Source: Escherichia coli
GTDB lineage: Bacteria; Pseudomonadota; Gammaproteobacteria; Enterobacterales; Enterobacteriaceae
Strand: one strand, 5' to 3'
Length of the DNA: 64,000 nt
Assembly: GCA_025336685.1 (NCBI GenBank)
Contig: GCA_025336685.1_4717.1
Position 1 is the first letter of the stretch. Each line of letters begins with the position of its first letter. The notes under the pieces are model-generated. The model made no database searches, was not told the origin of the DNA, and saw only the letters and a list, made by a program, of their open reading frames with translations. The position numbers and the translations under genes were made by a program. Below, piece after piece: positions 17,966-34,926 of the stretch.

Positions 17966-17967
17966 TT

Positions 17968-18594: not shown

Positions 18595-18600
18595 CATATT

Positions 18601-18633: not shown

Positions 18634-18647
18634 TTATGCCGTCAAGC

Positions 18648-18694
18648 AAAAAAAAAAAAAATGATAGCCACGGACCCTCCAATGAAGGAGGGTC
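18648..18694 (-). terminator. Minus-strand terminator candidate: hairpin GACCCTCC/GGAGGGTC followed on the minus strand by a U14 tract
   Basis: 8-bp stem at 18673..18694; A14 homopolymer at 18648..18661 on the plus strand; located just after the stop of 18707..19411. Confidence 0.45.
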
Positions 18695-18706
18695 GTGACC
18701 GTCAGT

Positions 18707-19411
18707 TTAGGATGTAGATAATCTCGCGTACTTCTGGCGAACATGGTTCTTACGGCGAACTTCGTCATCCTCGTCACGCCATTCGAGGTAAGCAACGAAT
18801 CGACGTAACTGTGCTGCTGTCATCGTTGACGATCGGTCTTCTACATCTAGAACGACGTAACGAACGCCACCAACATCATCGCAATCAACGTAATTGAATA
18901 CCATAAGGCCATCACCGTATTCAACGACGGTAACTTCGAACCGTTTCTCGAACAAATAAAACAGTTCCGATTCGATGATCATCGGAATGACGCATATTTC
19001 AGCACGATCGAGGATTTCCATCATCACCCGTAACGCGCGAGGAGTATGGCGAGCGAACTGGCCGTTAAAACGTTGTCTCATTGCTTGTTCCACGCCATCT
19101 GTTTTTGTTCCAAACCAAGGACGTATTACAGATTTCGGTGGTGTAAGACGAAAGCGATATGCTTGTATAAACAACAGAATATCAGCGACGTTAGGAAATT
19201 CTTCCTGGTCTTCGTATATCTTGCGGATAATATCCGGAATCGTAACCATCAAGTATTTCTTATCGCCTCCCACTTTCTCGAGATTAGCAATATGTCCTTC
19301 TACTACCGGCTGGTAAACGAAATTATACCAATGACGGTATCTTGCAGCACGCTGGTAATTCGGGATAAAATTAAGAACAACATTCACTGCACGTTTTAAC
19401 GGGTTCATCAA
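18707..19411 (-). CDS. Hypothetical protein (234 aa)
   Basis: Long minus-strand ORF. Confidence 0.5.
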   Translation of the reverse strand: MMNPLKRAVNVVLNFIPNYQRAARYRHWYNFVYQPVVEGHIANLEKVGGDKKYLMVTIPDIIRKIYEDQEEFPNVADILLFIQAYRFRLTPPKSVIRPWFGTKTDGVEQAMRQRFNGQFARHTPRALRVMMEILDRAEICVIPMIIESELFYLFEKRFEVTVVEYGDGLMVFNYVDCDDVGGVRYVVLDVEDRSSTMTAAQLRRFVAYLEWRDEDDEVRRKNHVRQKYARLSTS

Positions 19412-19422
19412 AAGGTTCCTTC

Positions 19423-19857
19423 TTATGTTCTAATATGCACATCGTCAATCCCCTCGGTAATCCAGCCGATGGGAAGGACAATCGTTGTTATCGTGTTATG
19501 GGTGTAGGGATTAAGAAAATGGAAATAGTAATTTTTGTTAGACTGTTCAATGCGTAGCTCGAGCTGCGCATCTTCAGGTAACCGTAACCAAGCACCGTAC
19601 AGCTCATTAAACTTACGCTGAATTTTACCCGGGTTCATTGGAACCCTACGACCACGGTGGCGTAGCTGACGTAATGATTCAATCAAACACTCAGAGATAC
19701 CCATTACCGTTCCGTTATCGCTTGCATCAATAACGATGAACTCATGTGACCCGCGACCATGATAGAATCCAGCAACAAGCGCAACGGCGACAACGACAAC
19801 CGTACCGATACCTACGTACCAATAGTAAACGTCCATAACAGCCTCACTTATGCCCAA
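19423..19857 (-). CDS. Predicted membrane protein (N-terminal transmembrane segment)
   Basis: Hydrophobic stretch YYWYVGIGTVVVVAVALVAGFY. Confidence 0.45.
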   Translation of the reverse strand: MGISEAVMDVYYWYVGIGTVVVVAVALVAGFYHGRGSHEFIVIDASDNGTVMGISECLIESLRQLRHRGRRVPMNPGKIQRKFNELYGAWLRLPEDAQLELRIEQSNKNYYFHFLNPYTHNTITTIVLPIGWITEGIDDVHIRT

Positions 19858-20423
19858 TAGTCGGCGAGCGGTTTCACCTTATTAATGGGTAACTGTACTT
19901 TACCGATGTTCTCTACATCCGCATCAGCGTAGAGAACGATTTTATCGTCGTCTCTTTCCCAACGTATAATAAATCGACCAGGAAGAAGATTACCCTGTTC
20001 AAGAGATGCTGTAACCTGTTGTGTTAAAACAGACAACCAAGCAGGCATCAGTGTTGCAATATCTAAGTCATTTGACCACTCAGCACGTTGCTCCACTGGA
20101 CGCAACATACGTTGGACGGTGCGTTGAACTGTTGCGGTGATATAGCCTTTATCTTCGTCACTGATTGGATCCGGACGAGACACGAAACGTTCAGCAGGCT
20201 TACGGGAAATATGTTCATGTAGTTTGATGAGTGGTGTTGTCATAGTACTCGCTCCATCAGAATGTAATTGGGTAACCCGCAGGGTTGTCTGCATGTTATT
20301 CAGAAGCGCAAAAGCGCCATAAACAACAACGATACCAAGTACAGCCAAAACAGAAATCATTAACGTGTATTGCATTGTCATCTTCCCCTCATACGCATCT
20401 TGAAGATTAGTTAAAAACAACAA
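19848..20423 (-). CDS. Predicted membrane protein (N-terminal transmembrane segment)
   Basis: Hydrophobic stretch LMISVLAVLGIVVVYGAFALL; short overlap with the downstream gene. Confidence 0.45.
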   Translation of the reverse strand: MLFLTNLQDAYEGKMTMQYTLMISVLAVLGIVVVYGAFALLNNMQTTLRVTQLHSDGASTMTTPLIKLHEHISRKPAERFVSRPDPISDEDKGYITATVQRTVQRMLRPVEQRAEWSNDLDIATLMPAWLSVLTQQVTASLEQGNLLPGRFIIRWERDDDKIVLYADADVENIGKVQLPINKVKPLADYWA

Positions 20424-20470
20424 AAGAAAAAACGATATAAAGCAAGGTCCTCTGATATCAGAGGACCTTG
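20411..20470 (-). terminator. Rho-independent terminator (minus strand): perfect 28-nt palindrome followed by a T-rich tract
   Basis: CAAGGTCCTCTGATATCAGAGGACCTTG at 20443..20470; minus-strand T-rich run corresponds to plus-strand 20411..20440. Confidence 0.6.
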
Positions 20471-20476
20471 GATCAA

Positions 20477-21160
20477 TTAGCTTGCAGCATCTTCATTTGT
20501 ATCAGGTTTGCTTCCCCCTAACAAACCGTCAAACAGACCTGTATGTTTCAGGTAGAAGATAGCGATAGCGCCCATCGCTGCTGCGCTCGTCGCCGTTAAC
20601 GCAACCCCAGCACGATACTGCCATTTACGGTCAGGCTTTTGATCAAGCGCCATACGACGCATGTATTCAGCCTCTGCTTCATTCCGATGAATTTCGGATT
20701 CGGCCAGACGGGCTAAGGTATCGCGGTCAAGGTTATCATAACGTACGTTCATGGAAGTTTCCTCTTGTTTGGAAGTTGATTGCTTAGTGGATTCTTGGTC
20801 AACAGTCGTTTCAGTTGGTTCAAACGGCTGGTTGTTCATTTTCTGATCTTTATTGGTCATGATAGACTCCTTCGATTTTTGAGACGAAATTGATTTAAAC
20901 CATCGTGGATGGCGGTATTCGGTTTTACATGTACAGTTAAGTTTCTCGTGCATGAAAGCGTAAAAACGTTTTGCACCTACACGTAAGGCTTTCAGCATTA
21001 TCCATCCACGAGCACTCAAACGGTGTAGCTGTTGCGGTATGTCGAGTTTCCTAGCCAAGCGAAAGTATCTCTCAATCACTTCGATAGGAAACCATTGTTG
21101 TTCCGCATCGGTGAGACTGAAAGTCTTATCCATGATTGAAATCTCGCTGGCTTGCTTCAC
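20477..21160 (-). CDS. Hypothetical protein with C-terminal transmembrane segment
   Basis: C-terminal hydrophobic stretch VALTATSAAAMGAIAIFYL; acidic/Ser-Thr-rich middle. Confidence 0.5.
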   Translation of the reverse strand: MKQASEISIMDKTFSLTDAEQQWFPIEVIERYFRLARKLDIPQQLHRLSARGWIMLKALRVGAKRFYAFMHEKLNCTCKTEYRHPRWFKSISSQKSKESIMTNKDQKMNNQPFEPTETTVDQESTKQSTSKQEETSMNVRYDNLDRDTLARLAESEIHRNEAEAEYMRRMALDQKPDRKWQYRAGVALTATSAAAMGAIAIFYLKHTGLFDGLLGGSKPDTNEDAAS

Positions 21161-21178
21161 CTAGGTAATATAGCCGTG
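21161..21178 (+). promoter_or_regulatory. Promoter-like motif CTAGGTAATATAGCCGTG in a divergent intergenic region
   Basis: Shares the AGGTAATATAG core with the 21-mers at 8034 and 35790; lies upstream of the plus-strand gene 21283..22104. Confidence 0.35.
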
Positions 21179-21282
21179 AAAAAAGTTGGATTAAGTTAAA
21201 TACCGCAACCTAACTAATTTTATAGGCCTACAGCCTAAACCAATCATCTTCGAAATCATCATCTACGAAACAGGAACCTATC

Positions 21283-22104
21283 ATGGAAAAAGTATTTGTT
21301 TGTAAGCTGTTTACTAACGGCAATAGCCAACCAATGTATCTGACCGATCCGGTTCTGGGTAATCGGAACAGTACTGTATTCAAAGAAGCTATCGAATACG
21401 CTAAAAATAAAGCCGTGAGAACACTGACGTCCGATGACTGTATCAATGGTATCACGTGGGCAGAGTTATTAGGTGATGCTGTTAGACACTTCGTTCGGGA
21501 TGCAAGAAAACAGGAAATCAGCCTCACGACCATTGTCGTGCGCGAAAACGCAGAAATTTTATCAAACGTTTTAGTTGATTTTAATGACGTTTACGTGTTT
21601 AATCCAGAGAACACTTTTGAACAATACCTTGCCGCCCTGAACAAACAGCTCGGTAAAGATGTTCATCCCGAATTCGCCAAGTTAACGTATCAAGTACTTT
21701 TTGACGACGTCGATCCGAATACGAAGATCAGCACCCGCTTAAACTGCCAGATAAAGAAATACGGATCGGTTCTTGCTACAGCGACACCTACCATCGATGG
21801 CGGTTATGATATCGAATTGGATTCTCCATTAAAAGAACAAGAACCTACTGGGGTTCGGGCAATACATCATACCCTCGTCGTTAAATCCGATGGTTGTGAT
21901 GAACATTACGCTATGACAAACGATGAAAATAATCACCGTTTAAGTCAAGCGATCGGTGTTCTACGTTATACCGAACCAACCACTGTAGACGATTATACTT
22001 CGACAACAACGCACACCACGTGTTTCATTTTCATTTATCCAAATGAAAGTGTGTACATTACTGACTGCTACGGCAACACGGTAGATAGCTTACGTCGTTA
22101 TTAA
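21283..22104 (+). CDS. Hypothetical protein (273 aa)
   Basis: ORF followed by a canonical terminator. Confidence 0.5.
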   Translation: MEKVFVCKLFTNGNSQPMYLTDPVLGNRNSTVFKEAIEYAKNKAVRTLTSDDCINGITWAELLGDAVRHFVRDARKQEISLTTIVVRENAEILSNVLVDFNDVYVFNPENTFEQYLAALNKQLGKDVHPEFAKLTYQVLFDDVDPNTKISTRLNCQIKKYGSVLATATPTIDGGYDIELDSPLKEQEPTGVRAIHHTLVVKSDGCDEHYAMTNDENNHRLSQAIGVLRYTEPTTVDDYTSTTTHTTCFIFIYPNESVYITDCYGNTVDSLRRY

Positions 22105-22110
22105 TCATGG

Positions 22111-22138
22111 AGCCTGTCCTTCGGGGCAGGCTTTTATG
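22111..22138 (+). terminator. Rho-independent terminator (GCCTGTCC-TTCG-GGGCAGGC + TTTTAT)
   Basis: 8-bp GC-rich stem, TTCG tetraloop, T-tract; immediately after the stop of 21283..22104. Confidence 0.65.
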
Positions 22139-22205
22139 CTGTTAAATATCAGGAATAAGAATTAACAAAATAGGAAAATGGTGTGAATATAACACAAAGG
22201 AGGGA

Positions 22206-22328
22206 GATGATTATGTTACTCATTCTAATGGAGAGAGCATTGCTGGCGGGTATATGCGCATTCTCTGTTAAACACGCTGTTGCTATCATGACTGAAGAAA
22301 GGCGTAATACGCATAATGTATTACGCTG
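22206..22328 (+). CDS. Small hydrophobic protein (40 aa), below the ORF-track size cut-off
   Basis: ATG with strong Shine-Dalgarno AAGGAGGGAG upstream; fills the gap before 22335; encodes MIMLLILMERALLAGICAFSV... Confidence 0.35.
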
Positions 22329-22334
22329 AAAACA

Positions 22335-22748
22335 ATGTCTGCATTAGTGTATGACGAGAAATCGTCGAGGCCCCCGTCTTCACGAGGGCCAACACCTATG
22401 CGCGACTATTTACCATCTACGAAACAAAGGGTTATAAACATGAGCAATTTGAATGTTGAATTTACTTCAACAACGCCCGTCATGAATGGCGTTGGTACTG
22501 AAACTAAGATCGTATTAGAACCCATCCCGGGGTTACGTGATCTCGGTGATTTTTACCAACTGATGCCACGTATACGTAACGCCTTAAACAGTATCGATCT
22601 TGATTCTGATAAAGATTTCCAACACGATACAGAAAATACCGATCATGTGTTGCTACCATCAGGGATCGGAAAATTCACCTACACGCAAACATTGAAAGCC
22701 TCCGATGGTGAAATCCGTCGTTTTATTGTTGAAGTAGAAAGCGCATAA
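22335..22748 (+). CDS. Hypothetical protein (137 aa)
   Basis: ORF followed by a family hairpin at 22753..22784. Confidence 0.5.
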   Translation: MSALVYDEKSSRPPSSRGPTPMRDYLPSTKQRVINMSNLNVEFTSTTPVMNGVGTETKIVLEPIPGLRDLGDFYQLMPRIRNALNSIDLDSDKDFQHDTENTDHVLLPSGIGKFTYTQTLKASDGEIRRFIVEVESA

Positions 22749-22752
22749 AAAC

Positions 22753-22784
22753 CATCCTCCCAACCCGTAAGGGAAGGGAGGATG
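22753..22784. terminator. Family hairpin CATCCTCCCAACCC-GTAA-GGGAAGGGAGGATG at a convergent junction
   Basis: 14-nt arms with a single AA/AA mismatch; between convergent genes 22335..22748 (+) and 22802..23443 (-). Confidence 0.55.
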
Positions 22785-22801
22785 AAATATGCCGTTATAT
22801 G

Positions 22802-23443
22802 TTATTCAACAAATCCCGCGTTCAACAAATTGTCGTAAACACGATTAGCGACATCAACAGGAGAATGTGTGTTACTGGTGTCTATACACAACGTTTTCGC
22901 GTCGCCGAGATAGTCCATAAAATCCATGTAACGATAACGTCGTTTATTGAATGTCGCTTCATCGATGTTATCAAACATCTGATGTTTAGCGTGTCGAACA
23001 CGGAATCGCCTTAAATACGTAGGATAGTCAATATCCAGATAAACGTAGTAAGACGGCATGATAATCGACGGTAGGTTCGGCAACAACGCATCAAACAGCT
23101 TAACGTTGGCATCATTAACCTGATAAACGTACGTCGAAGCAATCGAACGATCGCTAAGCACAGTCTTCCCTTCGTTAAGGGCTGGATGAATCACCTTATT
23201 GAAGAGATGATTACGTTGCGACATCATCGCCAACAGTTCAGTTTCTGGATCGAATCTGTTCGTTGGCGTCTGATCTTCCAGGATAAGTTTACGAATCGCT
23301 TCTCCGTAGAGTGTACCACCGGGTTCACGTACGACGCAGACGTTGTTTAAACGACTGTGTAAAGACGAGATAACCGAACTCTTTCCTGAATAATCCAGAC
23401 CTTCAATAACGATATATTTATTACGAGACATTCCCCGCTCCAA
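22802..23443 (-). CDS. tmk: Thymidylate (dTMP) kinase
   Basis: N-terminal KYIVIEGLDYSGKSS P-loop, REPGGT and DRSI(A)S motifs match the bacterial Tmk pattern (KYIVIEGLEGAGKTT ... REPGGT ... DR). Confidence 0.75.
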   Translation of the reverse strand: MERGMSRNKYIVIEGLDYSGKSSVISSLHSRLNNVCVVREPGGTLYGEAIRKLILEDQTPTNRFDPETELLAMMSQRNHLFNKVIHPALNEGKTVLSDRSIASTYVYQVNDANVKLFDALLPNLPSIIMPSYYVYLDIDYPTYLRRFRVRHAKHQMFDNIDEATFNKRRYRYMDFMDYLGDAKTLCIDTSNTHSPVDVANRVYDNLLNAGFVE

Positions 23444-23447
23444 TTAA

Positions 23448-24629
23448 CTATTTCGTTTTCGCCGTCAACGGTTGCGATACCGTAATCTCGACACGATTCT
23501 CATCGGTACGTTTAACGATGATAAGGCTGCGTTCATCACCGAATGGTGCTGCTACCTCGGAAGCCTCTTTAAGATTTTCAAGAATCTCACCGAAAGCTTC
23601 AAATACCGCAAAACCAGAGCTAACATCAATTCTTACTAAATGTACACACACATCGTTTACGGTAACGGTGTCATCCGTCTTGAACCCGCAACAGGAGGGT
23701 AGACAGAACTGACCGTCAGCGCAATTAGCTAGGCATGCCTCGCCACCGAACATTTCTATTAACGTCACCGGTTTAAATGTTTTCTCTGGGAAAGCGCTAT
23801 TAAGGGTATCGTTTCCATTCACGAACCAGATCGTTACTTTATCTTCAGAATACACCAGCCGGTACGGTTGGGTTGCGGACGCTTGCGCTTTATGCTGGTT
23901 AAATAACTTTGATTTTGTCGCAATCACAGCACGACCTTCGGCGTCGAAGTACAGAACTTCATACCCAACACATCCGATAAACACACGACGGTTATTAAGT
24001 TCCGGAATTCTGACTAATAATGCTTCACCGTTGTATCCGGTAGGAACAATACCACGTAGGATGATAGATTCATTGTTCAATACCGAGTTGTCTGCAGTGA
24101 TACTTCGCATTACCGCTGGCGTCACTATTTTATCTGCGGTAGGTTCAGGTTGCTCAGCAATGCGGTCAAAAGGTTCGATGGATACCATGGGAACGAAGTA
24201 TTCAACTATATACTTGTTTTCAGCACCAACGTCCATGACGGTGATCTGCAAACGCGTAGCATCCGAATTCAATGCTTGTCTCACACGTTCCGCATTAGGA
24301 GTATCGCGGTCAATATGAATCAAGGCTTTTACCACACCGTCGTCTTCCAACCATCCTGTTAAAACGCGACCGACGATATCATTCACGTCACGAATCGGGA
24401 AGCACACTTCAGCGCCATCGAGCACCGCTACGATTTTACTGCTAATGACGGGCACCTTACCGTCGTTAAGATGTGCCAACAGACCGGTTAATGCATCTTC
24501 ACTAACCGGATATTTTGTCGTCGTACTGACCACCGGTATGATAAAACGATCTTCGCCGTATTTCTCTGCACCACAGATAACCGGGACTTGAGGACATTGA
24601 TCAACTAGGCCCCATTCAACAGTAATCAT
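23448..24629 (-). CDS. Hypothetical protein (393 aa) with C-terminal Cys-rich cluster
   Basis: Six cysteines within about 25 residues (CLANCADGQFCLPSCCGF...C) suggest a metal-binding site. Confidence 0.5.
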   Translation of the reverse strand: MITVEWGLVDQCPQVPVICGAEKYGEDRFIIPVVSTTTKYPVSEDALTGLLAHLNDGKVPVISSKIVAVLDGAEVCFPIRDVNDIVGRVLTGWLEDDGVVKALIHIDRDTPNAERVRQALNSDATRLQITVMDVGAENKYIVEYFVPMVSIEPFDRIAEQPEPTADKIVTPAVMRSITADNSVLNNESIILRGIVPTGYNGEALLVRIPELNNRRVFIGCVGYEVLYFDAEGRAVIATKSKLFNQHKAQASATQPYRLVYSEDKVTIWFVNGNDTLNSAFPEKTFKPVTLIEMFGGEACLANCADGQFCLPSCCGFKTDDTVTVNDVCVHLVRIDVSSGFAVFEAFGEILENLKEASEVAAPFGDERSLIIVKRTDENRVEITVSQPLTAKTK

Positions 24630-24661
24630 AACGTTTTCCTTCTTGGGTTTTGTACATGTTG

Positions 24662-25276
24662 CTAACGGCGTTTTGTACCGACCTTCCCATTTCGATGGTC
24701 ATCAAGAATACGCCATTCTTCGAACAGGAGTTCAGCTGCGAAATAACCTACGGCGATGCTGTCTATCGCATGCTCATCAAGATTCGCTAACACAACACCG
24801 TTTCTGGGTGTGATGTTCATGAGGTTCAACACTTTCTGGCGAACATCGTCCTTACCGACACGTGACGTCATGATCCCAACGGCGCGTTTTGCGCTTCGGT
24901 TATCAACCCCTAAGAAAGACACCGTAGGGTCAAAATCGATAACCGTTGTCTGAATCGCTGAAAACAGCTCGCTGAGCGCCATACCGCTTTGCTTGAAACG
25001 ACCGATAAACGGTGTTTCACAAGCGACCGCCTGCGGTTGGTACTCTTGCAATAACGACGTCAGCGAACGACGGTGTTCTTGGATACGTGCGGCACGGTTA
25101 CCGTATCCAAGAGCAATATCACCATCAGGATCATATCGGCGTGAGGCGTGCCATGTCCCCGCATAAAGCAGTTCAATATCTTCGACACGCACGTCCAAAC
25201 GCAGTAACGACGCACCGAGTGTATCGGTGCCGGGGTCGATTGCCAGAATATCGTAAGCGTATTCTGGTGGGATCAT
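24662..25276 (-). CDS. RuvC-like Holliday junction resolvase (start moved to ATG 25276, ATGA-coupled to the upstream gene)
   Basis: ILAIDPGTDTLG (first catalytic Asp), ACETPF (Glu), DEHAIDSIAVGYF (His/Asp) follow the RuvC-family arrangement. Confidence 0.6.
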   Translation of the reverse strand: MIPPEYAYDILAIDPGTDTLGASLLRLDVRVEDIELLYAGTWHASRRYDPDGDIALGYGNRAARIQEHRRSLTSLLQEYQPQAVACETPFIGRFKQSGMALSELFSAIQTTVIDFDPTVSFLGVDNRSAKRAVGIMTSRVGKDDVRQKVLNLMNITPRNGVVLANLDEHAIDSIAVGYFAAELLFEEWRILDDHRNGKVGTKRR

Positions 25277-26088
25277 GGTGTTACAACAGCCTCTACCGAC
25301 CACGGGAAGGTTTTCGCAATAACGCCTTCCAGGAAGCGTTCAACTTCGGCTTGCTCATACACCGAAAGCTTTTCAAACGGCGTTTGGTCCTCGGTTAAAC
25401 CCACCGCATGAATGGGACCCAGATCTTTAACCAGGGTAACTTCACCTTTAACGCCTTCACGTTTAACGATAACCGCGTGGTCATTAACCTTAGGATCATA
25501 CAACACACGCATCATGGTTACCGCGTCATCCGGCTCATAACCGAAATCGATCGCAACGCGAGCACTCGTCCCTTCTTCATCCAAGAGCTTGCTCAACGCT
25601 TTACAGCGGTCTTCAATCCAATCCAACGCAACCACGGTTTCTTGGCGTAGCTGAACCTCAACCTCTTTTCCTTGTTCATCGATACGTTTCACGGTAACAA
25701 AATCACGCAATAAGCGGTCAGGAAGAAGGGAAGCGATAAGTTCAACGTTGGGTTCGGGTTTATCGTTTTCCAGGATGATGGTCGCTTGTGCGTCCAGATG
25801 TTCTTTAAAACGGATGTAACGTGTTAATCGCAGAACTTCATCCTGGGATTTTGCGTCTTCGGGAATAATCTCCGTCATGACGTTATAAATCTTTTCAGCG
25901 AACGTTGGAATTACGGTGATTGTAATTCGTGCTGGTGTACCACGCTCCTGGTACTCATCGGCTAACTTCTTTGCCATCCCGTTAAAGTAGGTCTGGAGAA
26001 ACGGTTGTTGGGTTAAAAACATTTTTTCCAGATCGGAATAGCGATGCTTGCGCGCGTGGCCTAGCTTCTTCATGGGCTTTTTCATCAA
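25273..26088 (-). CDS. Hypothetical protein (271 aa) co-transcribed between the Rad50-like ATPase and the RuvC-like resolvase
   Basis: No Mre11/SbcD phosphoesterase motifs (DxH, GDxxD, GNHE) detectable. Confidence 0.5.
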   Translation of the reverse strand: MMKKPMKKLGHARKHRYSDLEKMFLTQQPFLQTYFNGMAKKLADEYQERGTPARITITVIPTFAEKIYNVMTEIIPEDAKSQDEVLRLTRYIRFKEHLDAQATIILENDKPEPNVELIASLLPDRLLRDFVTVKRIDEQGKEVEVQLRQETVVALDWIEDRCKALSKLLDEEGTSARVAIDFGYEPDDAVTMMRVLYDPKVNDHAVIVKREGVKGEVTLVKDLGPIHAVGLTEDQTPFEKLSVYEQAEVERFLEGVIAKTFPWSVEAVVTP

Positions 26089-26106
26089 CAGAAATCCTTA
26101 TTTATC

Positions 26107-28626
26107 TTAAATAATCGTGACATGTTCGTTATACGTTTCAGGGAGAATGATGTTCGTTTTGTCGAGAACCATACACTCGGCTTTACGGAATGATGCGTGA
26201 TTGATAACATAGTGGCTGATGAACCACACTTGGCTTACACGGTGACCATCGACCAAACGACGAACAAAATCCATGGCATTAGATTGGTGCTGCGGATCAA
26301 ATGTTGATGCGAATTCATCCAGCATCAAGGGATAATCCGTAAACCCTTTGTAATGCATCATCGCGATGATAAACGCGATATTGATAATTTCCTTTTGCCC
26401 CTTACTCCCATAAACAATATCTTTTCGCGGTGTCGGATACTTCTCGGTTAGCAGCGGGAAACGATAATTCAATCCTTGCGCATCGATAGCACAAGGGAGT
26501 ATCTGAAGTTGGTATTCCCAAATACTCGCAATGATACCGTTCATGTATTCGACGAACGCGTTGATTGGACCAGCAATTGTTTCAGCAATCAGGCCGTTAG
26601 ATGGACTTAACTCATCCAGAACAAGTTGTGTGTAACTGAGTTGTTCTTCCACCTCTTTTTGCGTTGTTTCCAGCTGAGCCAAAAGCTGTTGGTCGGTTTT
26701 AGCTTCCTGTAACTGCTGTTCGACATGACTTATTCGTCGAACCGTATCAGACATCGCAGCGCGTAATGATTTCGTGTAGAGGTGTTGCAGATACTCCAAC
26801 CACAGTTGTGTTAACGCTTTATCGCTACTATCAGAACGCACCTGGTCTTCCATAATCGCCGTAATGGTTTCCAATCTACCTTCCGTTGCTGTGATGGCTT
26901 GGGTCAATCGTTCAACGGTCGTTAGCAACTCCGTCCTGTTCTTATAAAGCAGTTCTCGGCGTTGCTGTAATGGTTCAACATCAACAGCTTGTACACGTTC
27001 GAGCATGCCTTGAAGATGCTTCCGTTCTTGTTCGGCTTGGGTGTAACGCGCAAGCTTCTCAAATGCGAGCAGCCAATCATTAATGATTCCAATACTGCGA
27101 AACCCTAATCCGTTTTTACGTCCTTCTTCCAGCAGATTGTCCCACATGGGTTTAATGGCGTAATAATCTTTCGTCCAACGTGTTAACTGACGATGCTGCT
27201 CCATCCAAAGCGTATAACGCTGAACCTTCTCACTCAGCTCAGCTAACGATTTCTCTTGTTCTTCAACCCAAGCACGGCCCTTCTGAATACGTTGTTCGAT
27301 GCTTGCTTTGCTGGTCTTTTCTGTCTCACCAACATGAAAGCGATAATTGCATTTTGGGCAGCTGGTCTGGGGTTGATGGTTAAGGTGGTCAAGATGCGCT
27401 TCCAAGTCAGCTAACGCATGTTTCGCGTTACGCAAACGCATTCGTGCCGCCTCTTCCTCCTTGATGTAAGCTTCAGCATCGTAAACATGATAGGTGTTGT
27501 CGGTATCAATCCATTCTTGCAATAGTTCCGTTAACGGAGCCTGAACTTGCGTGAGCTGTTGTAAACAAACCGCGGCGTCCAGATTCATCGTTAAAAGCTC
27601 ACCTGGATGATCATGCTGGAGTTGTTCGTCCAAACGGGCAAGGCGGGCTTTAATCTGATCGATATCGCCTTCTCCAGACTGTTTCAACTGGTCAAGGATA
27701 TTATCGATACCCAACAGCTCGTCAACCTGACTTTCGAGTTTCGCATTCGCATTCGCGAGTTGCTCTCTTAGTTCAGCCAGATTCCGCTGTTCTTGTTGCG
27801 ATGTTCCTCCTTGGTAACGAACAACTGCACGAAGAAGCTCGCGATTAAAATGATGGGCACGTTGTGTGGATTCCAGAAGCTGTCGTTGATCGACATCGCT
27901 ATCGAATAACGGCAATCCCATCATCGCTTCGAGCGCTGAGCGTTGCTGCTTTAACTCTGCTTCCAATCCCTGGTGGTCGGTTCCAGTGTATTTCGCTTCA
28001 ATTCGCTGTGACGTTTCAACCAACTTATTCAATGTATGCTCATTCACCGCTTTCAGTGAACGTACTTGTTGCTTAACCACCTGAAACAACTCAAGCGCAT
28101 AATCGACGTTAACCGGACATATCTGTGTTAATCGTTCGCGTCGTTTCATCGGTCCCATTTCGGTGAACTGGTAAGCTGTTTCGTAACCTAACAACAAACG
28201 AATGGTGTCGTCATTAAGTTCGAAATGTTCTTCGATCAGTTTCCACTGGGCTGGTTGTGTACCACCACCGTTCAGGTTCTCGCTGTCGTTAACGTAGAAC
28301 TCGTGCTTAAACCCTTTTTCTAAACGACTGATAAGACGGTATTGCTTATTACGGTGTTCGCAGCGGTACTCGTAATACCCATCTTTATCAAAATCGGCGC
28401 GCTCGGGAACGGTTGGATACAGCAAAGGCAGTAGACTACTCTTACCCGAACCGTTACTACCTAAAATGAGTTGTACGGGATTATCTGGCCGGATGACCAG
28501 CTCCCGAATCATCCCGGTATCAAAACGATTGAATCCACGTAAGTGGAGATAGGTGCATCGCATGCTATGATAATCCTTCTTCGATACCTTCTGAACCCGT
28601 GGTTCAGAATGCGAAGCTGAAGCCAT
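26107..28626 (-). CDS. Rad50/SbcC-like SMC-type ATPase with coiled-coil and CxxC zinc hook
   Basis: Walker A GSNGSGKSS; long heptad-rich middle; CPKC hook-like motif; C-terminal signature-like SKGQKE, Walker B YPLMLDEFAS, H-loop ISHY. Confidence 0.7.
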   Translation of the reverse strand: MASASHSEPRVQKVSKKDYHSMRCTYLHLRGFNRFDTGMIRELVIRPDNPVQLILGSNGSGKSSLLPLLYPTVPERADFDKDGYYEYRCEHRNKQYRLISRLEKGFKHEFYVNDSENLNGGGTQPAQWKLIEEHFELNDDTIRLLLGYETAYQFTEMGPMKRRERLTQICPVNVDYALELFQVVKQQVRSLKAVNEHTLNKLVETSQRIEAKYTGTDHQGLEAELKQQRSALEAMMGLPLFDSDVDQRQLLESTQRAHHFNRELLRAVVRYQGGTSQQEQRNLAELREQLANANAKLESQVDELLGIDNILDQLKQSGEGDIDQIKARLARLDEQLQHDHPGELLTMNLDAAVCLQQLTQVQAPLTELLQEWIDTDNTYHVYDAEAYIKEEEAARMRLRNAKHALADLEAHLDHLNHQPQTSCPKCNYRFHVGETEKTSKASIEQRIQKGRAWVEEQEKSLAELSEKVQRYTLWMEQHRQLTRWTKDYYAIKPMWDNLLEEGRKNGLGFRSIGIINDWLLAFEKLARYTQAEQERKHLQGMLERVQAVDVEPLQQRRELLYKNRTELLTTVERLTQAITATEGRLETITAIMEDQVRSDSSDKALTQLWLEYLQHLYTKSLRAAMSDTVRRISHVEQQLQEAKTDQQLLAQLETTQKEVEEQLSYTQLVLDELSPSNGLIAETIAGPINAFVEYMNGIIASIWEYQLQILPCAIDAQGLNYRFPLLTEKYPTPRKDIVYGSKGQKEIINIAFIIAMMHYKGFTDYPLMLDEFASTFDPQHQSNAMDFVRRLVDGHRVSQVWFISHYVINHASFRKAECMVLDKTNIILPETYNEHVTII

Positions 28627-28677
28627 ACTTCAGCGTTATTTTCTATATCGTTATTTAAATCAGTAGGAGATTACAGC

Positions 28678-29766
28678 ATGAGCGATCTGGCAACAGACAA
28701 TCGCACAAAAGGGAGTCAGTTAGCTCCAGACAGCAACGTAAGCGTTTTCCGTATCTTTGCCTTGGGTACCGTTGCTGCCGACTTTTCCAATAAAAGTCTG
28801 GAGGAAGATCCTAACCAGGCGCTGGAGGTCTTTCTTGACGAGATGATGTCAGGTGCTGACGGGAAAGTTGAAGCGGCGGGAAGCGTGAAAGAAGTTAGTG
28901 CAACAGACGCTCAAGGGAACAGCTATACGGCAAAAGCGGCAACAACAACCAGCGTGCAGTGTTACTGGTTACCCTTTGGTAGTAATCGGATGACAGCGCC
29001 TAACTTGAGGAAAGGTCAGCGTGTGGTGGTCTGGCGTACTGCCGATGAAGAACAACTCTATTGGCAGCCCAAAGGAGGGGATAGTGAGCTGATGACCATG
29101 GAATCGGTTATCCTCACCGTCAGTGCACGTCCTAGCGCTAAGAAGGACCGTAAATCGATTTCAACGGAAGACTGCTATTACCTAATGGTTGATACCTTTC
29201 TTAAGAAAGCGGTTATCGGTACAAGCGCACAGCTTGGTGAAGTTACCCAAGTCTACATGGAACTTAATCTGGACGAGGGTTACTTACAGGTTGCGGACAG
29301 CGTCCATCAAAACCTACTATTGCTCCATTTTGTCGAGCATATGCTGCGATACCAAAACCAGGACGACAGCATTATCGACGTAACAAAAAAGAACATCACA
29401 TTCCAATGCGAGGATACGCTCAAAGCAATCGCTAAGAACGATATCCGAATGAAAGCAAAAAATATTTATACGGAATGTGAGAACTTTGAACGTACCAGCA
29501 AAACAGAAAGCGTTACGAGTCAGAATGTTTCTTTGAAATGCGATCGCTACACCGCGCAAGTATCAGGACAAACCATATTCAAATGTCCGAATACGGTATT
29601 CACCGGAGCCGTGAGTTTCACTGGTGAAGACGGAAACACGATGACATTGAACGGTAACTTCATACACGTCGCGGGATCTTGGCGTTCACCAAGCGGAACA
29701 AACGTATACACTCACGACCACGGTGGCGTTAAATCCGGTAGTAGTAGAACCGACCCGTTTCAATAA
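28678..29766 (+). CDS. Hypothetical virion protein, possibly baseplate central spike-like
   Basis: C-terminal THDHGG (HxH) resembles the iron-binding apex of gpV/gp5-type spikes; weak. Confidence 0.45.
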   Translation: MSDLATDNRTKGSQLAPDSNVSVFRIFALGTVAADFSNKSLEEDPNQALEVFLDEMMSGADGKVEAAGSVKEVSATDAQGNSYTAKAATTTSVQCYWLPFGSNRMTAPNLRKGQRVVVWRTADEEQLYWQPKGGDSELMTMESVILTVSARPSAKKDRKSISTEDCYYLMVDTFLKKAVIGTSAQLGEVTQVYMELNLDEGYLQVADSVHQNLLLLHFVEHMLRYQNQDDSIIDVTKKNITFQCEDTLKAIAKNDIRMKAKNIYTECENFERTSKTESVTSQNVSLKCDRYTAQVSGQTIFKCPNTVFTGAVSFTGEDGNTMTLNGNFIHVAGSWRSPSGTNVYTHDHGGVKSGSSRTDPFQ

Positions 29767-29789
29767 AACAAAAAAGAAATACAACATAG

Positions 29790-29824
29790 CCTCCTTCCCC
29801 GGCCTTGGTGGCTAGGGAAGGAGG
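29790..29824. terminator. Family hairpin CCTCCTTCCC-loop-GGGAAGGAGG at a convergent junction
   Basis: 10-bp perfect stem with a 15-nt loop, between 28678..29766 (+) and 29840..30277 (-). Confidence 0.5.
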
Positions 29825-29839
29825 ATTATAGTTTATTTA

Positions 29840-30277
29840 TTAACGCACTGCGTTCTGGATGATTTCTTTTCCGATCTTAACCAAAGCAGGTATCTGCACA
29901 GCGGTTGCGCCTCGATGACGAAACGCGGTCGTTAACGCGGTATCGATACTCACAGCACGTCCGTGGAGACGATCGAAGTAGACTTGCGTGATTGCAGCGG
30001 CGTAATCCTTTCGCTGTTTCTTGGTTTGGTTTAACAGCGCCGCACTATGACTAACGATGAAGTAAGCGATTAAGAAGAACGCCGCCGACCGCGAACCGGG
30101 TAGAAAACCTTGTCGCTTAGGAAGCATCTCACAATCGCGAACAGTATTATCATTCGCGAGCTCATCCATGTCAACACAGCATAATTTTGCATAGGTGTGG
30201 AGATAGTGGGTAAAAGCTGAATTTAACATGTTTCTTTCCTCGATTACAATGAGTTCAATGTATAGCTTAAACGTCAC
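29840..30277 (-). CDS. Small hypothetical protein with one hydrophobic segment (start uncertain; internal ATG at about 30229)
   Basis: ORF with hydrophobic stretch AAFFLIAYFIVSHSAALL. Confidence 0.4.
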   Translation of the reverse strand: MTFKLYIELIVIEERNMLNSAFTHYLHTYAKLCCVDMDELANDNTVRDCEMLPKRQGFLPGSRSAAFFLIAYFIVSHSAALLNQTKKQRKDYAAAITQVYFDRLHGRAVSIDTALTTAFRHRGATAVQIPALVKIGKEIIQNAVR

Positions 30278-30335
30278 AGAACGACGTGTAGCGGTTTGTT
30301 TTAATTTCTAAGGGGTTTCCTTATCTAAGATTGAA

Positions 30336-30698
30336 TTAAAGCGTTCTGAAGAGTTCTGTAGCGTTCTCGTCACGTAGACAGGCTTCGTTCAACAATTCAG
30401 CTAACAGCTTCGACCGAACTTCAACAAATGTCCTGAGGCGATGCTCCCATTCTAAACGGATGGTGTAAGTATTATCCAGGTTTTTGTAATCAACGACAGA
30501 TACCGAGCAGCGGGGTTCACGTTTGTTCACAGCACCCCAAACATCTTGAATGATCGCCTTACCTTTCTCAGTACATGTAAACGTTATAACGTAATGATTG
30601 TTCGATGCTTCAACACGAACATCAATAAATTCGTTTTGTAATGTCGAGACCTTGGTTAGACGCTCAATCGCGAGCGATAACCCAACACGTTGTTGCAT
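30336..30698 (-). CDS. Small protein, paralogue family A (1 of 3)
   Basis: Shares the hxFxC(T/S)xxGKxhh(E/Q)xx(W/Y/F) ... WE motif with 30700..31125 and 31127..31543. Confidence 0.5.
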   Translation of the reverse strand: MQQRVGLSLAIERLTKVSTLQNEFIDVRVEASNNHYVITFTCTEKGKAIIQDVWGAVNKREPRCSVSVVDYKNLDNTYTIRLEWEHRLRTFVEVRSKLLAELLNEACLRDENATELFRTL

Positions 30699-30699
30699 A

Positions 30700-31125
30700 T
30701 CAAATCCCCTCTTTCAGAATCTCATTAAGGCTGTCAGTAATCCAGTCGAACTTCGTCTTAATCATGGCTGGGTTCAATCCGTATACTTCCCACACAAGCT
30801 GCGGTTTATGTGTTCCATCGTCCAAACAAAGCACATCGATTGAGAGCATCATACCGCCCGTCAATTTCATGTTCTCACAACTACGAAGATATGCGGATTC
30901 TAGCATTACTTTCCCTAACGCGGTGCAAGCAAACGTTAACCGGGAAGAATACAGGTACGATGAAGTTTTACAGTAGGTTGCTGATATCGGTTGAATATGT
31001 TTGCGGAGTTTGGCGTCTTCACGTAAGAGCAGTAACGTGCGATGTAAACGCGTATGCTCGGTAACCGATGGGCTATATTCACCGATACGCTCTTCGGCGA
31101 CTGATTCAGGCCATTTAATTTCCAT
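30700..31125 (-). CDS. Small protein, paralogue family A (2 of 3)
   Basis: LTFACTALGKVMLESAYL ... VWEVY; abuts its neighbours with 1-2 nt gaps. Confidence 0.5.
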   Translation of the reverse strand: MEIKWPESVAEERIGEYSPSVTEHTRLHRTLLLLREDAKLRKHIQPISATYCKTSSYLYSSRLTFACTALGKVMLESAYLRSCENMKLTGGMMLSIDVLCLDDGTHKPQLVWEVYGLNPAMIKTKFDWITDSLNEILKEGI

Positions 31126-31126
31126 G

Positions 31127-31543
31127 TTATCTTCCTCGATTTTCTAGTTGAGACACAATACCATCAGCAACGTAATGCAACTGGACATTAAAATCCAACG
31201 ACGATACTGCGGAAATTGACCAGCAGGCATTTGAAGCCCAATACAACCCACCTACACCCAAAGAGACTTCCCACGTTAACTTCGTTATGACGTCTCTAGC
31301 TCGCTGTTCACTATATCGAAACGCGTTTTCCAACAATGTTTTTCCCGTTTGTGAACATAAAAAGCAAAGTTTCACATCTGTGCCGGTCTTTTCAAAATCA
31401 AACAATCGAAAATGGTCAACCAAAGAGGGGGTGGAGGCTAGGCATTGCAATGCGTCTTCCAATGCAAGATGGTCTAGCGTTTCTAAGTTTTTGCATGGCT
31501 GCTTTGGTGCGAGTGCGATTGATTTGTGGAATACAACATTCAT
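31127..31543 (-). CDS. Small protein, paralogue family A (3 of 3)
   Basis: LCFLCSQTGKTLLENAFRY ... TWEVS. Confidence 0.5.
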   Translation of the reverse strand: MNVVFHKSIALAPKQPCKNLETLDHLALEDALQCLASTPSLVDHFRLFDFEKTGTDVKLCFLCSQTGKTLLENAFRYSEQRARDVITKLTWEVSLGVGGLYWASNACWSISAVSSLDFNVQLHYVADGIVSQLENRGR

Positions 31544-31591
31544 GATTAGTTCCTCGTAGTGTTAAGTGGGGACAGATGTGTCCCCGGATAG

Positions 31592-32062
31592 TTAGATTAC
31601 ATCCCAAGCCGTGTTAGGTATGGGTTGATTACGATCGATGTAATACATCACGCTTTCTTTAAGCTTGGTTAACGCGTCAGCAACGATGTTCTCCACGGTT
31701 ATCACCTTTTCCATGTTGCCCATTGTATCCTGCCATGTAAACCAATCATTGATGTTATCGATGTATAGGGACTCATCGTCATCCGTCATGACCTGTATAT
31801 TTTCACGGCGATCGCGGGTTGTATACAACGGTGTTTGTACATTCGTTCTAACACGCGTCCAAAGCTTCTCTAGAAAGTTCGACGGTTGATTATTCGTAGC
31901 GATAATAAGCTCACTACGTACTGAATGTTCTCCTCGCTTTTCAATAGCAAATAAACCATCGTAAGTGATGTTCATCAATTTACGGAGGTCATCGTTGCTG
32001 TTCCAGTCTTTTACAACAGCAGGAAGTCGGCTATTGTAACCTTCAGGCAATCTCTCAATCAT
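31592..32062 (-). CDS. Hypothetical protein (156 aa)
   Basis: ORF in the same co-directional block. Confidence 0.45.
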   Translation of the reverse strand: MIERLPEGYNSRLPAVVKDWNSNDDLRKLMNITYDGLFAIEKRGEHSVRSELIIATNNQPSNFLEKLWTRVRTNVQTPLYTTRDRRENIQVMTDDDESLYIDNINDWFTWQDTMGNMEKVITVENIVADALTKLKESVMYYIDRNQPIPNTAWDVI

Positions 32063-32492
32063 CGGTTTCTGCTCCTATATCACGTTTGAGGTCGGCCATC
32101 AGTTTTTCATAATGGTCTTTTATCACGTTCGCAATAACGAATTGCACTTTTCTCACTAGCTGCTCATCGGCATCACTGAATGTAAAAAGCTCACACACAT
32201 CAATCGGTTGTGATGCACCACCAATACGGTAGGTTTTAGTCGATGCGCGCTCAGCAATGACGGGGAGCGGTTCCACAGCGTTCAGTGCGGTACAGATTTC
32301 CGTAACGAGTTCTTGAATGCTGCTTCTGCCTTCGATAATAACAGAACAGCGATAGACATCCACCTCGTTAAGCCGTTCAACGACATCCGCCCTGATTTTG
32401 AAATTTCCAATAAGCGAGCTCACCAAAGTGCTATGCCAGTTGTTCACCACCCCGACCAACAGCGGATGATTCTCAAGATCTCTTCTATTCAT
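32055..32492 (-). CDS. Hypothetical protein (145 aa)
   Basis: ORF overlapping the downstream start by 8 nt (coupled). Confidence 0.45.
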   Translation of the reverse strand: MNRRDLENHPLLVGVVNNWHSTLVSSLIGNFKIRADVVERLNEVDVYRCSVIIEGRSSIQELVTEICTALNAVEPLPVIAERASTKTYRIGGASQPIDVCELFTFSDADEQLVRKVQFVIANVIKDHYEKLMADLKRDIGAETDD

Positions 32493-32571
32493 CAGTTAGC
32501 TCCTAAATAGCGCTACAACTAATTTTTAATGGAAGGGAATATGTTTCCCTTCCTTGGGTTAGTTTAATGCG

Positions 32572-32847
32572 TCATGCAGCTTTACAGCTCGCGTAACATA
32601 CCAGTGTTCCGTTGTTGATTGCCTCAACAACATCCTGGGTCAGTTTGGTCGCAAGTTTATTATCCGCACTCGGTACGTAATAACCTTCTCCTGTTTCAGT
32701 GACTAGGCGATAACGTACTAATCCTACCGCACGCTCGACGCGTAGCACCTTTTCAAGTTTGTGTTTGATGATCTTCGTCAGGCTGACGGCGTCTGATGCG
32801 TAGATTGCTTTATAAACCTTGTTCTTTGCTGTCGGTTTCATCAACAT
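32572..32847 (-). CDS. Small hypothetical protein (start moved to the internal ATG to avoid overlap with 32870..33703)
   Basis: The track ORF 32572..32910 would overlap the upstream gene by 40 nt; the internal start gives MLMKPTAKNK... Confidence 0.4.
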   Translation of the reverse strand: MLMKPTAKNKVYKAIYASDAVSLTKIIKHKLEKVLRVERAVGLVRYRLVTETGEGYYVPSADNKLATKLTQDVVEAINNGTLVCYASCKAA

Positions 32848-32869
32848 GGTTTCTGTTTTCCTTGGTTTA

Positions 32870-33703
32870 TCACGATGCCAGGTCAGCGATATCCCAATGG
32901 GTATAACCAACCTCGCGGATGAGCTCTGCTGTCTCTTCGAACAGTGGGGTAGGGCTAATAACCGGTAACCATTTCCCCTCTCGGGTTATCTTGACTTCGA
33001 CGGTCTGTAAGTTCGTGTTCCAACGAACATCATAAACCAGCGCATAGCCAAGAGGATGAACAAGTCCATCTTGGTTATATGTCTCCAAAAGACCTCGTAC
33101 GTCTTCTTCGTAGGATGTTTTCGACAAGACAGCACGTACTCGTCGCAGCCTCTTCGTGATAACCTTTCCCAGCTCGATGCTCTCCCAGCCTGTCATGACG
33201 CAAGGATTACCATCGCGACGAAGAGACCGAGAAATATAAATAGAATCGTTCGTGGTAAGGTGTACCCACCCAAGATCGCAGTATGCGACAGGTCGTGGTG
33301 ATTCTCCTTCGATAACCGTCGTTTCATCCAACATCGCCACAACACCGCAGTCTGCGAACTCCGGCGATACTTCATCCAGCATCTTAATACGGCTTTCTTG
33401 GCCGGTATGGTCAGGATCGACATGCGCGTAGTAGTAATTAGGCTCTATCGCACGGTATTGCGCAATGCTTCTACGGAAGTCGGTATCCTGCATTCCCAGC
33501 GGGTGGTGATACGCAAGCTGTTGCTTTATACCATCCTTGATTACCAACAGAAGATCTTCGCGATCTGATGCGGGATCCTCCACCACGATGTATTTAACAA
33601 TCGCTTTCAGGTTCTTAACGATGCTATCTGGAAGTTTCTCAATATCCCGCGCATCATAGACACGGTTAACTACAGTGTTTACAAGGTGTTTTGATAAGCT
33701 CAT
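32870..33703 (-). CDS. Paralogue family B protein (1 of 3), function unknown
   Basis: Shares an HPLG(F/Y)-containing C-terminal domain and a (Y/W)(H/Y)PLGMQD N-terminal motif with 33781..34638. Confidence 0.55.
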   Translation of the reverse strand: MSLSKHLVNTVVNRVYDARDIEKLPDSIVKNLKAIVKYIVVEDPASDREDLLLVIKDGIKQQLAYHHPLGMQDTDFRRSIAQYRAIEPNYYYAHVDPDHTGQESRIKMLDEVSPEFADCGVVAMLDETTVIEGESPRPVAYCDLGWVHLTTNDSIYISRSLRRDGNPCVMTGWESIELGKVITKRLRRVRAVLSKTSYEEDVRGLLETYNQDGLVHPLGYALVYDVRWNTNLQTVEVKITREGKWLPVISPTPLFEETAELIREVGYTHWDIADLAS

Positions 33704-33780
33704 CGATGATCTCTCTTTGTTATTTCTACCGATAACGCGGCATAAGGGGACAATGATGTCCCCGTGTTAGAATCAACTAC

Positions 33781-34638
33781 TTACGGCTTCAAATCCGAAA
33801 TATCCCATCGTACGTAACCTGTACGCTCAATTTCATGAACCAGTTCCTCGGTTTGTTTCTCAACACCGACAACGGGAACCCAATTCAACTGTTGGGTGCG
33901 TTTACCGATGTTAACCTCGACACGCTGCAGATCATCATTCCAACAAACCCCAGCCGGTTTCACAAAACCCAGCGGGTGGATAAAACTAAGATCGTCGCTG
34001 AAATCACGAAGAACGCGCAACGTATCGATGGTTGAAGGGTTATCACAGCGAACAAGGCGTACGCTTTGCAATTTATCGTATACCGCTCGAGCTACACGTT
34101 CATCGCGCCAGTTCGTCATGAATACCGGTTTTATACCACGTTTTAGAAGATGATCGATCTGGATTGCGATGTTATCGTGAACATACATGCAACCCTGTTC
34201 GGTTTCGGTGTTGCAGCCACCGTCCTCTAACCGGTTCGGATACGTCTGATGGTCTACCGTCACAGCAACTCCTTCAGCGAGCGTGGTCAACGGAAGAAGA
34301 CGTTGTAGACTCGTTATTGGATAATCAGGCGACATCCCAGGACGGATATGCGCCATCGTACCCCAACTGTCAGGGAATCCGTGTCGGTATGTGTATTGCC
34401 TGAATACCTCATCCTGCATCCCTAACGGATACCATCGTGCAAGCCGCTGTTGCTCGCCATCCTGAATAACAAAAAGCATTTCTTTGCGATTCGGCCATCG
34501 ATGATGTTCCACGGTCAAGCCATCAACAACCGGTCTTAAGTTGACTTTGATATGCTCGGGAAGTTTATCCACCTCTTCGCGACGGTAAAATCGATCGACG
34601 ACGATGATATCAACCTTCCCGTGATTGAACCAATTCAT
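33781..34638 (-). CDS. Paralogue family B protein (2 of 3), function unknown (start moved to ATG 34638, MNWFNHG)
   Basis: WYPLGMQDEVF and IHPLGFVKPAGVCWNDDLQRVEVNI align with the other two family members. Confidence 0.55.
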   Translation of the reverse strand: MNWFNHGKVDIIVVDRFYRREEVDKLPEHIKVNLRPVVDGLTVEHHRWPNRKEMLFVIQDGEQQRLARWYPLGMQDEVFRQYTYRHGFPDSWGTMAHIRPGMSPDYPITSLQRLLPLTTLAEGVAVTVDHQTYPNRLEDGGCNTETEQGCMYVHDNIAIQIDHLLKRGIKPVFMTNWRDERVARAVYDKLQSVRLVRCDNPSTIDTLRVLRDFSDDLSFIHPLGFVKPAGVCWNDDLQRVEVNIGKRTQQLNWVPVVGVEKQTEELVHEIERTGYVRWDISDLKP

Positions 34639-34926
34639 GTTAACTCCCTCTGTGGTGCGAAAACAAAACATCTAATTGCTCCCGTTGTTCTTTTAAGTAT
34701 GCGGGAAGCTGGTCTTCCCGTACCGTTCCGATTTCCAACGTGATATACCAGCGTTGTTCGGAAGCCTGCCATTGAAAACTGCTCTGTAACCGCAGGATGC
34801 TAGGATCGTGTACCTTGCTTGCACTGTAACGGTTGAACCAATTCAGGTATCCTGCTTTCCCTTCCTCATCAGCAACGTAACGCTGCACGCTGTTCTTCCC
34901 TTTGTTTTCGTATCCTGTTGCGTGTA

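Follow-up and report, generated by a model that had tools for sequence, protein, structure and literature searches.

The Mre11-Rad50 (MR) systems of bacteriophage T4 (gp46/gp47) and Escherichia coli (SbcCD) combine a Rad50/SbcC ATPase that has a CxxC hook with an Mre11/SbcD phosphoesterase that has a capping domain, with the two genes next to each other, or nearly, in both systems. The closest described relatives of the ATPase considered here belong to the core gene set of the Chimalliviridae, and are gp012 of Escherichia phage vB_EcoM_Goslar (Goslar), a 237-kb nucleus-forming jumbo phage (chimallivirus), and gp165 of phiKZ. The phiKZ gene (orf165) is described with "SMC homology" (structural maintenance of chromosomes), tolerates zero transposon insertions, gives a phenotype upon knock-down, and appears essential. 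The subject of this report is the corresponding gene in a 64,000-nt stretch of DNA (the window) from an E. coli assembly (GCA_025336685.1, contig GCA_025336685.1_4717.1), where an 818-aa ATPase is followed by a 270-aa ORFan and a RuvC-family resolvase, with no nuclease of the Mre11/SbcD type beside it. The 818-aa protein probably serves as Rad50/SbcC subunit in a conventional Mre11-Rad50 (SbcCD) complex. The nuclease of this complex would be an SbcD of the Goslar gp178 family, whose gene lies beyond the window at a distance of about 80 kb.

Profile comparisons placed the ATPase in PHROG_77, "SbcC-like subunit of palindrome specific endonuclease", with an expectation value (E) of 7.8e-75. Goslar gp012 is 99.2% identical to it in amino acid sequence, and phiKZ gp165 is about 24% identical over 92% of the length, with the motifs, the hook and a divergent baseplate gene as neighbor all alike. 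A profile built from six chimallivirus homologues matched 14 Protein Data Bank (PDB) sequences, of which the best 11 were Rad50 (E 1e-8). One chain carries an N-terminal Walker A motif together with a C-terminal signature, Walker B, D-loop and H-loop, the signature-like motif (GSKGQKE) lying just upstream of Walker B. In an alignment of five chimallivirus homologues (that of the window included) with T4 gp46, the Walker A motif, the CPxC hook, the Walker B/D-loop and the H-loop proved to be invariant. The overall identity to gp46 is very low (17%). The invariant residues of this six-sequence alignment include D770, E771, F776, D777, I803, S804 and H805. The CPKC sequence, residues 423-426 of the 839-aa open reading frame (ORF), is the predicted zinc hook. 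The hook region (441-552) of the NCBIfam profile Rad50_Sulf aligns to residues 390-504 of the ATPase, and on each side of the hook, approximately 230-250 residues are free of any domain match; the NCBIfam matches all scored far under their cut-offs. Translation and alignment thus confirmed the Rad50-type motifs (Walker A, CPKC, signature, Walker B and H-loop) that a first-pass annotation, made from the DNA alone, had proposed.

The ATPase family was detected in 287 phage records, all of them jumbo phages of the phiKZ/RAY/SPN3US/Noxifer type. Judged by these alignments, the ATPase of the window is orthologous to Goslar gp012 and phiKZ gp165, and is an ordinary Rad50/SbcC-type ATPase of DNA-end processing, a core gene of nucleus-forming jumbo phages that was already known and annotated. 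A weak profile match to the SMC-like ATPases of defence systems (Lamassu LmuB, E 7.3e-13) arises through the shared ATP-binding cassette (ABC)/SMC head; it is far weaker than the match to phage SbcC, and the gene sits in the core genome of a lytic phage rather than in a defence island.

No metallophosphatase was found in the window, since none of its ORFs holds a GNH[DE] motif, and a tblastn search with the Goslar SbcD (gp178) gave no match. The first-pass annotation was therefore correct in that no Mre11/SbcD gene adjoins the ATPase gene; none adjoins it in Goslar, phiKZ, RAY, Noxifer or two metagenomic Goslar-like lineages either. When every stop-to-stop ORF in the window and in Goslar was compared with T4 gp47 and E. 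coli SbcD (phmmer), no match was significant (best E 0.5). The weak best match to T4 gp47 was Goslar gp178, which was likewise the sole ORF in this set to combine DxH...GD with GHxH. This gene (NC_048170, 162609-163751; L004:40610-41752, minus strand) is labeled "hypothetical" in RefSeq, possibly because it scores just 14.8 bits against Pfam Metallophos (cut-off 21.5) and matches no NCBIfam model.

Comparison of gp178 with PHROG_100, "SbcD-like subunit", gave an E of 1.8e-40. A profile of 46 gp178 homologues matched 15 PDB sequences, all Mre11/SbcD, with Thermotoga maritima Mre11 as the best match (E 3.6e-9) and E. coli SbcD also matched. The AlphaFold2 model of gp178 has a predicted local distance difference test score (pLDDT) of 91.5 and a predicted template-modeling (TM) score of 0.82, and Foldseek comparison with the PDB returned only Mre11/SbcD structures among the top 30 matches (TM 0.52-0.73, E down to 1.6e-14), spanning both the nuclease and the capping domains. 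In the model, a disordered linker (residues 328-344) is followed by two C-terminal helices, a layout that corresponds to the Rad50-binding region of Mre11, and these helices may bind Rad50. Motifs I (DxH), II (GD), IV (H) and V (GHxH) are invariant in the 46 homologues. Profile and model together identify gp178 as a clear Mre11/SbcD homologue, at an identity of about 19-20% to gp47 and SbcD.

Goslar gp157 was also considered as the partner. This 185-aa Metallophos_2 protein (phrog_547; NC_048170, 140999-141556; L004:19000-19557, minus strand) is the sole metallophosphatase named in the Goslar RefSeq record. It was rejected on account of its patchy distribution: it is absent from most chimalliviruses, and its relatives are found in Yoloswag-like Erwinia phages and in phages of Enterococcus, Streptomyces and Bacillus. 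It appears to be accessory and to have no part in the MR complex.

The distribution of the gp178 family follows that of the ATPase. The SbcD family was found in 315 phage records, compared with 287 for the ATPase, and the counts by genus are nearly equal (SbcD family/ATPase: Pseudomonas, 81/81; Erwinia, 62/60; Salmonella, 24/24; Vibrio, 23/22; Serratia, 21/21; Aeromonas, 19/19; Klebsiella, 16/16; Ralstonia, 13/13). The existence of the SbcD and its co-distribution with the ATPase are established, and agree with Iyer et al. 2021 (PMC7824862), who describe both SbcC and SbcD as all but universal among jumbo phages. Wherever both positions were compared, the two genes are at least 79 kb apart. 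The listed starts of the two genes are 154 and 47 kb in Noxifer, 29 and 193 kb in Ea35-70, 36 and 132 kb in pTD1, 24 and 110 kb in AerS_266, and 135 and 258 kb in HHBS36_1. Goslar gp012 and gp178 are separated by about 81 kb, taking the shorter way on the circular map. A 237.5-kb IMG/VR contig carries the pair about 79 kb apart; its SbcD gene is 99% identical to that of Goslar, and its 270-aa protein is 98% identical to that of the window, closer than that of Goslar. The lack of an SbcD gene in the window fits a location beyond the window coordinates.

Two readings had been offered in the first-pass annotation, namely a partner nuclease encoded beyond the window, or a locus for a non-canonical Rad50 with a novel partner and a resolvase. 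The spacings in Goslar and in the IMG/VR contig bear out the first. The second is unsupported, because the ATPase occurs across the chimalliviruses, whereas the 270-aa gene is restricted to the Goslar-like clade. Neither of the two findings that the first-pass annotation named as refuting it was obtained as worded, since the SbcD gene is not in the operon of the ATPase, and the 270-aa protein is no phosphoesterase. Even so, the supposed absence of a phosphoesterase partner does not hold up.

Several observations weigh against a conventional complex. The SbcD gene was read solely in relatives that are 94-98% identical, not in the genome of the window itself. Gene order gives no argument for a complex, as linkage of the two genes is never seen. 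Motif III of the gp178 family is G-T-P-S-H-D (G-T-N-L-H-D in Goslar), unlike the canonical G-N-H-D/E; the His-Asp is retained, but the usual metal-binding Asn is gone, which makes the nuclease activity of the family uncertain. The Pfam SMC_N match of the ATPase (39.3 bits) is slightly below the cut-off of 40, and a PDB search with the ATPase as a single sequence matched no chain. In the searched literature, experiments on the ATPase or gp178 proteins were limited to fitness screens, and no papers on Goslar gp010-012 or gp178 were found.

The lack of linkage in every chimallivirus in which both positions were compared could also mean that the ATPase acts alone, as an SMC-like DNA tether or genome organiser in the phage nucleus, while the distant SbcD has a separate job. 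The "SMC homology" and apparent essentiality of the phiKZ orthologue, and the generic nature of the Pfam family matched (SMC_N), would be in line with such a role. It is nevertheless highly improbable, given the near-identical phyletic distribution of the two families, a hook that is of the Rad50 CxxC type and not an SMC hinge, Rad50 as the best PDB sequence matches of the ATPase family, and a linker and C-terminal helices that are retained in the SbcD model, as in the Rad50-binding region of Mre11.

For a conventional MR complex, a mechanism can be outlined from what is established for T4 gp46/gp47 and for SbcCD of E. coli, and it is by this analogy that we infer a physical complex, its activity and its role in replication. 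The ATPase would dimerize via the CPxC zinc hook and would bind an SbcD dimer through the C-terminal helices of SbcD. The ATPase heads would clamp DNA ends in an ATP-dependent manner, and permit cutting and resection by the SbcD dimer. Resection would generate 3′ tails for a phage RecA/UvsX-like recombinase, leading to recombination-dependent replication, and the RuvC encoded two genes downstream may resolve the resulting junctions or branches ahead of packaging.

The ATPase gene is the first in a block of five minus-strand genes, followed by the 270-aa gene, the RuvC gene, a 393-aa ORF and a thymidylate kinase gene (Table 1). Their Goslar counterparts are gp012 ("putative SbcC-like protein"), gp011 (hypothetical), gp010 (RuvC), gp009 (hypothetical) and gp008 (Tmk). 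The three ORFs on which the first-pass annotation was built (839 aa, 26107-28626; 271 aa, 25273-26088; RuvC-like, 24662-25303; all on the minus strand) are present as described, and in each a start further downstream was assigned. For the ATPase, the most likely start is M22 (28563, 818 aa), which is common to all homologues and to all public gene calls; AAGGA lies 10 nt upstream of this ATG, and the competing upstream ATG (28626) lies within a hairpin. For the middle gene, the most likely start is ATG 26085 (270 aa), which has its own AAGGA and lies 21 nt past the stop of the ATPase gene, and the RuvC start (ATG 25276) overlaps the stop of the 270-aa gene as ATGA (a -4-nt junction). Gene order and overlaps are established. 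Co-transcription of the ATPase, 270-aa and RuvC genes is plausible, because the junctions are of 21 and -4 nt and no convincing internal terminator is present. The promoter scan used a sigma-70 model; these phages use their own RNA polymerases, which are outside the reach of the scan. The hairpin, between the divergent baseplate and ATPase genes, has a 7-bp stem and a T-rich tail on the plus strand; it is called a terminator in Goslar, yet no plus-strand gene ends just upstream of it.

The RuvC assignment of the first-pass annotation was upheld by a Pfam PF02075 score of 26.0 bits (cut-off 22.2) and a match to phrog_159 (E 2e-21). Residues D14, E87, H169 and D172, which we take to be the equivalents of E. 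coli D7, E66, H138 and D141, are invariant among four phage homologues. The protein resembles the bacterial RuvC and poxvirus A22-type resolvases in its above-threshold Pfam match and in the conserved D-E-H-D positions. With the RuvC, the family identity of the three enzymes is established and so, apart from motif III of the SbcD family, is the integrity of their motifs. Unlike for bacterial RuvC, no RuvA or RuvB partner is encoded nearby, a situation known for jumbo phages (PMC7824862). In other chimalliviruses, the RuvC gene is located about 9-19 kb from the ATPase gene. The slot between the RuvC and Tmk genes is variable, being occupied by an ORF of 393-408 aa in Goslar-like contigs and of 163 aa in one metagenomic Goslar-like lineage (L014), and empty in another (L010). 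The 393-aa ORFan of the window (Goslar gp009) had zero matches in Pfam, PHROGs, NCBIfam and PADLOC.

The 270-aa gene is, by its substitution pattern, real and strongly constrained: comparison of the window with Goslar gave a ratio of non-synonymous to synonymous substitution rates (dN/dS) of 0.039 at a dS of 0.38. The N-terminal 30 residues of the protein are basic (isoelectric point, pI, 10.4), and the remaining body is acidic. A tblastn search of 50,697 phage records found Goslar alone, a word-indexed search of 5.8 billion proteins found three clusters, and a HMMER profile search of 1.84 billion representatives added one homologue (P0004) and its fragment; none of these searches found a homologue outside the Goslar-like clade. 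A further match (P0006), to a repeat protein, was rejected as chance. Both of the divergent homologues (45% and 43% identity) occupy the same position, in the order baseplate (divergent), SbcC-like, 270-aa gene, RuvC, variable slot and Tmk, such that the place between the SbcC-like and RuvC genes is fixed in three Goslar-like lineages. The overlap with RuvC is also 4 nt in L014, and is longer in L010 as called. The ATPase gene is followed by a different gene in phiKZ, RAY and Noxifer; otherwise, no substantive difference separates the ATPase of the window from Goslar gp012 and phiKZ gp165.

Searches for the identity of the 270-aa protein were negative throughout. No credible match was obtained in Pfam, PHROG, NCBIfam or PADLOC, and a PDB profile search gave none at E ≤ 10. 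A sub-threshold match to Pfam Ad_Cy_reg (E 5.9e-4, 20.1 bits; cut-off 28.6) was taken as chance. The structure prediction that had been proposed as a check on this protein yielded an AlphaFold2 model of low confidence (pLDDT 57.9) with no recognizable fold, and fold searches gave generic alpha/beta matches alone. Three beta-beta-alpha repeats (PUR/Whirly-like) hinted at in the model were rejected, since hhalign found no similarity between the segments. Comparison by hhalign with RAY gp24 (downstream of the ATPase gene) and RAY gp11 (upstream of RuvC) gave probabilities of about 0.2%. The phosphoesterase pattern (DxH/GD/GNH) is absent, as the first-pass annotation had noted for the 271-aa frame, and no metallophosphatase profile of Pfam, PHROG or NCBIfam was matched; as far as motifs and profiles can tell, the protein is neither a phosphoesterase nor a replacement for Mre11.

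The constant place of the 270-aa gene between the ATPase and RuvC genes in three lineages, at merely 43-45% identity in the protein itself, may suggest that the product is an additional physical partner of the ATPase, of RuvC or of both (an adaptor or RuvC regulator), besides SbcD, in Goslar-like phages. The ATGA overlap suggests translational coupling to RuvC, purifying selection is strong, and the basic N-terminus could bind nucleic acid. Adjacency alone, however, is weak evidence, because unrelated small ORFs also sit between genes 46 and 47 of T4. The gene is moreover missing from all other chimalliviruses, where the same ATPase and RuvC are present, and the protein lacks a nuclease or DNA-binding motif and a fold match in the libraries, the PDB profile search or the model. 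Such a partnership is thus unlikely. In its most specific form, an accessory subunit of Goslar-like phages would bridge the ATPase and RuvC, or gate RuvC, coupling resection to junction resolution in the phage nucleus; we regard this as quite doubtful. If true, the protein would have in the phage a role like that of Nbs1, Sae2 and similar MR cofactors, without sharing their ancestry.

A further possibility, to which we give a real but minority chance, is that the 270-aa gene is unrelated to DNA metabolism, and is an accessory gene (e.g., for host takeover or anti-defence) that sits in the transcription unit by chance. The gene is confined to one clade, the neighboring RuvC-Tmk slot is variable and filled by ORFans, and mixed functions are common in jumbo-phage operons, as with the thymidylate kinase gene on the same strand here. 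Unlike the variable slot beside it, however, the 270-aa gene has retained its place and its RuvC overlap across approximately 45% sequence divergence, and the search of PADLOC gave no match.

Table 1. Positions of the genes and motifs of the ATPase locus in the window.
Feature	Position	Strand	Basis or remark
Rad50/SbcC-type zinc-hook ABC ATPase	26107..28563	(-)	818 aa; open frame to ATG 28626, 839 aa; PHROG_77, starts of homologues
Walker A/P-loop, GSNGSGKS	28438..28461	(-)	Translation; G-N-G-G-K-S invariant in alignment
CPKC zinc-hook motif	27349..27360	(-)	Translation; midpoint of the insert separating the ATPase lobes
C-terminal lobe: Walker B (LMLDE), D-loop (STFD), H-loop (ISH); DEFASTFD...FISH	26212..26319	(-)	Translation
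270-aa ORFan (Goslar gp011)	25273..26085	(-)	dN/dS, synteny; 271-aa ORF 25273-26088
RuvC-family Holliday-junction resolvase, 204 aa	24662..25276	(-)	Pfam, phrog_159; ORF 24662-25303
393-aa ORFan (Goslar gp009)	23448..24629	(-)	RuvC-Tmk slot
Thymidylate kinase (Goslar gp008)	22802..23431	(-)	ORF 22802-23443; Pfam Thymidylate_kin, E 9.6e-28
Baseplate assembly protein gene, divergent	28678..29766	(+)	phrog_3216, E 2.7e-61
Hairpin over upstream ATG 28626	28616..28634		Terminator in the Goslar annotation

At the two ends of the locus, the thymidylate kinase gene closes the same-strand block, its product being 100% identical in amino acid sequence to Goslar gp008, and the baseplate assembly gene is the sole neighbor of the ATPase gene that is conserved throughout the chimalliviruses. 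The divergent order of the baseplate and ATPase genes is also found in RAY, Noxifer and the metagenomic Goslar-like lineages L010 and L014.

The locus is 94.5% identical in DNA sequence to Goslar, and by this measure the source of the window is a close relative of that phage. The entire window is collinear with Goslar 218642-237305 and then 1-43374. The window thus crosses the ends of the deposited Goslar record, compared with which the genome must be either circularly permuted or terminally redundant. In the alignments, window positions 1-18661 and 18608-31141 correspond to Goslar 218642-237305 and 1-12537, and the two alignments overlap by 54 nt. The stretch at 31142-36066 is hypervariable relative to Goslar, with merely patches at 80-91% identity, and contains a pair of paralogous ORFs (277 aa, 32870-33703, and 296 aa, 33781-34671, both on the minus strand; 31% identity, E 7e-38). 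Near-complete Goslar-like genomes (approximately 236-243 kb; loci L024-L031, cluster P0007) were found in NCBI isolate assemblies labeled Salmonella enterica, E. coli and Shigella sonnei, and none were found among complete RefSeq E. coli genomes or PLSDB plasmids. The presence of such genomes in bacterial isolate assemblies could reflect a carrier state or contamination.

That a nuclease seems to be lacking at this locus is an effect of viewing one window. What is new is the re-annotation of gp178, the consistent split of the MR genes in chimalliviruses, and a small, constrained ORFan. In RefSeq, the label "hypothetical" on Goslar gp178 and its relatives can be replaced by SbcD/Mre11. Knock-downs with dCas13d work in Goslar (PMC11087766), and the 270-aa ORFan between the ATPase and RuvC genes is a cheap target for such a knock-down. 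Every chimallivirus compared encodes the MR subunits at distant loci, unlike T4, T5 and bacteria, which raises the question of how the stoichiometry and the nuclear import of the two subunits are coordinated.

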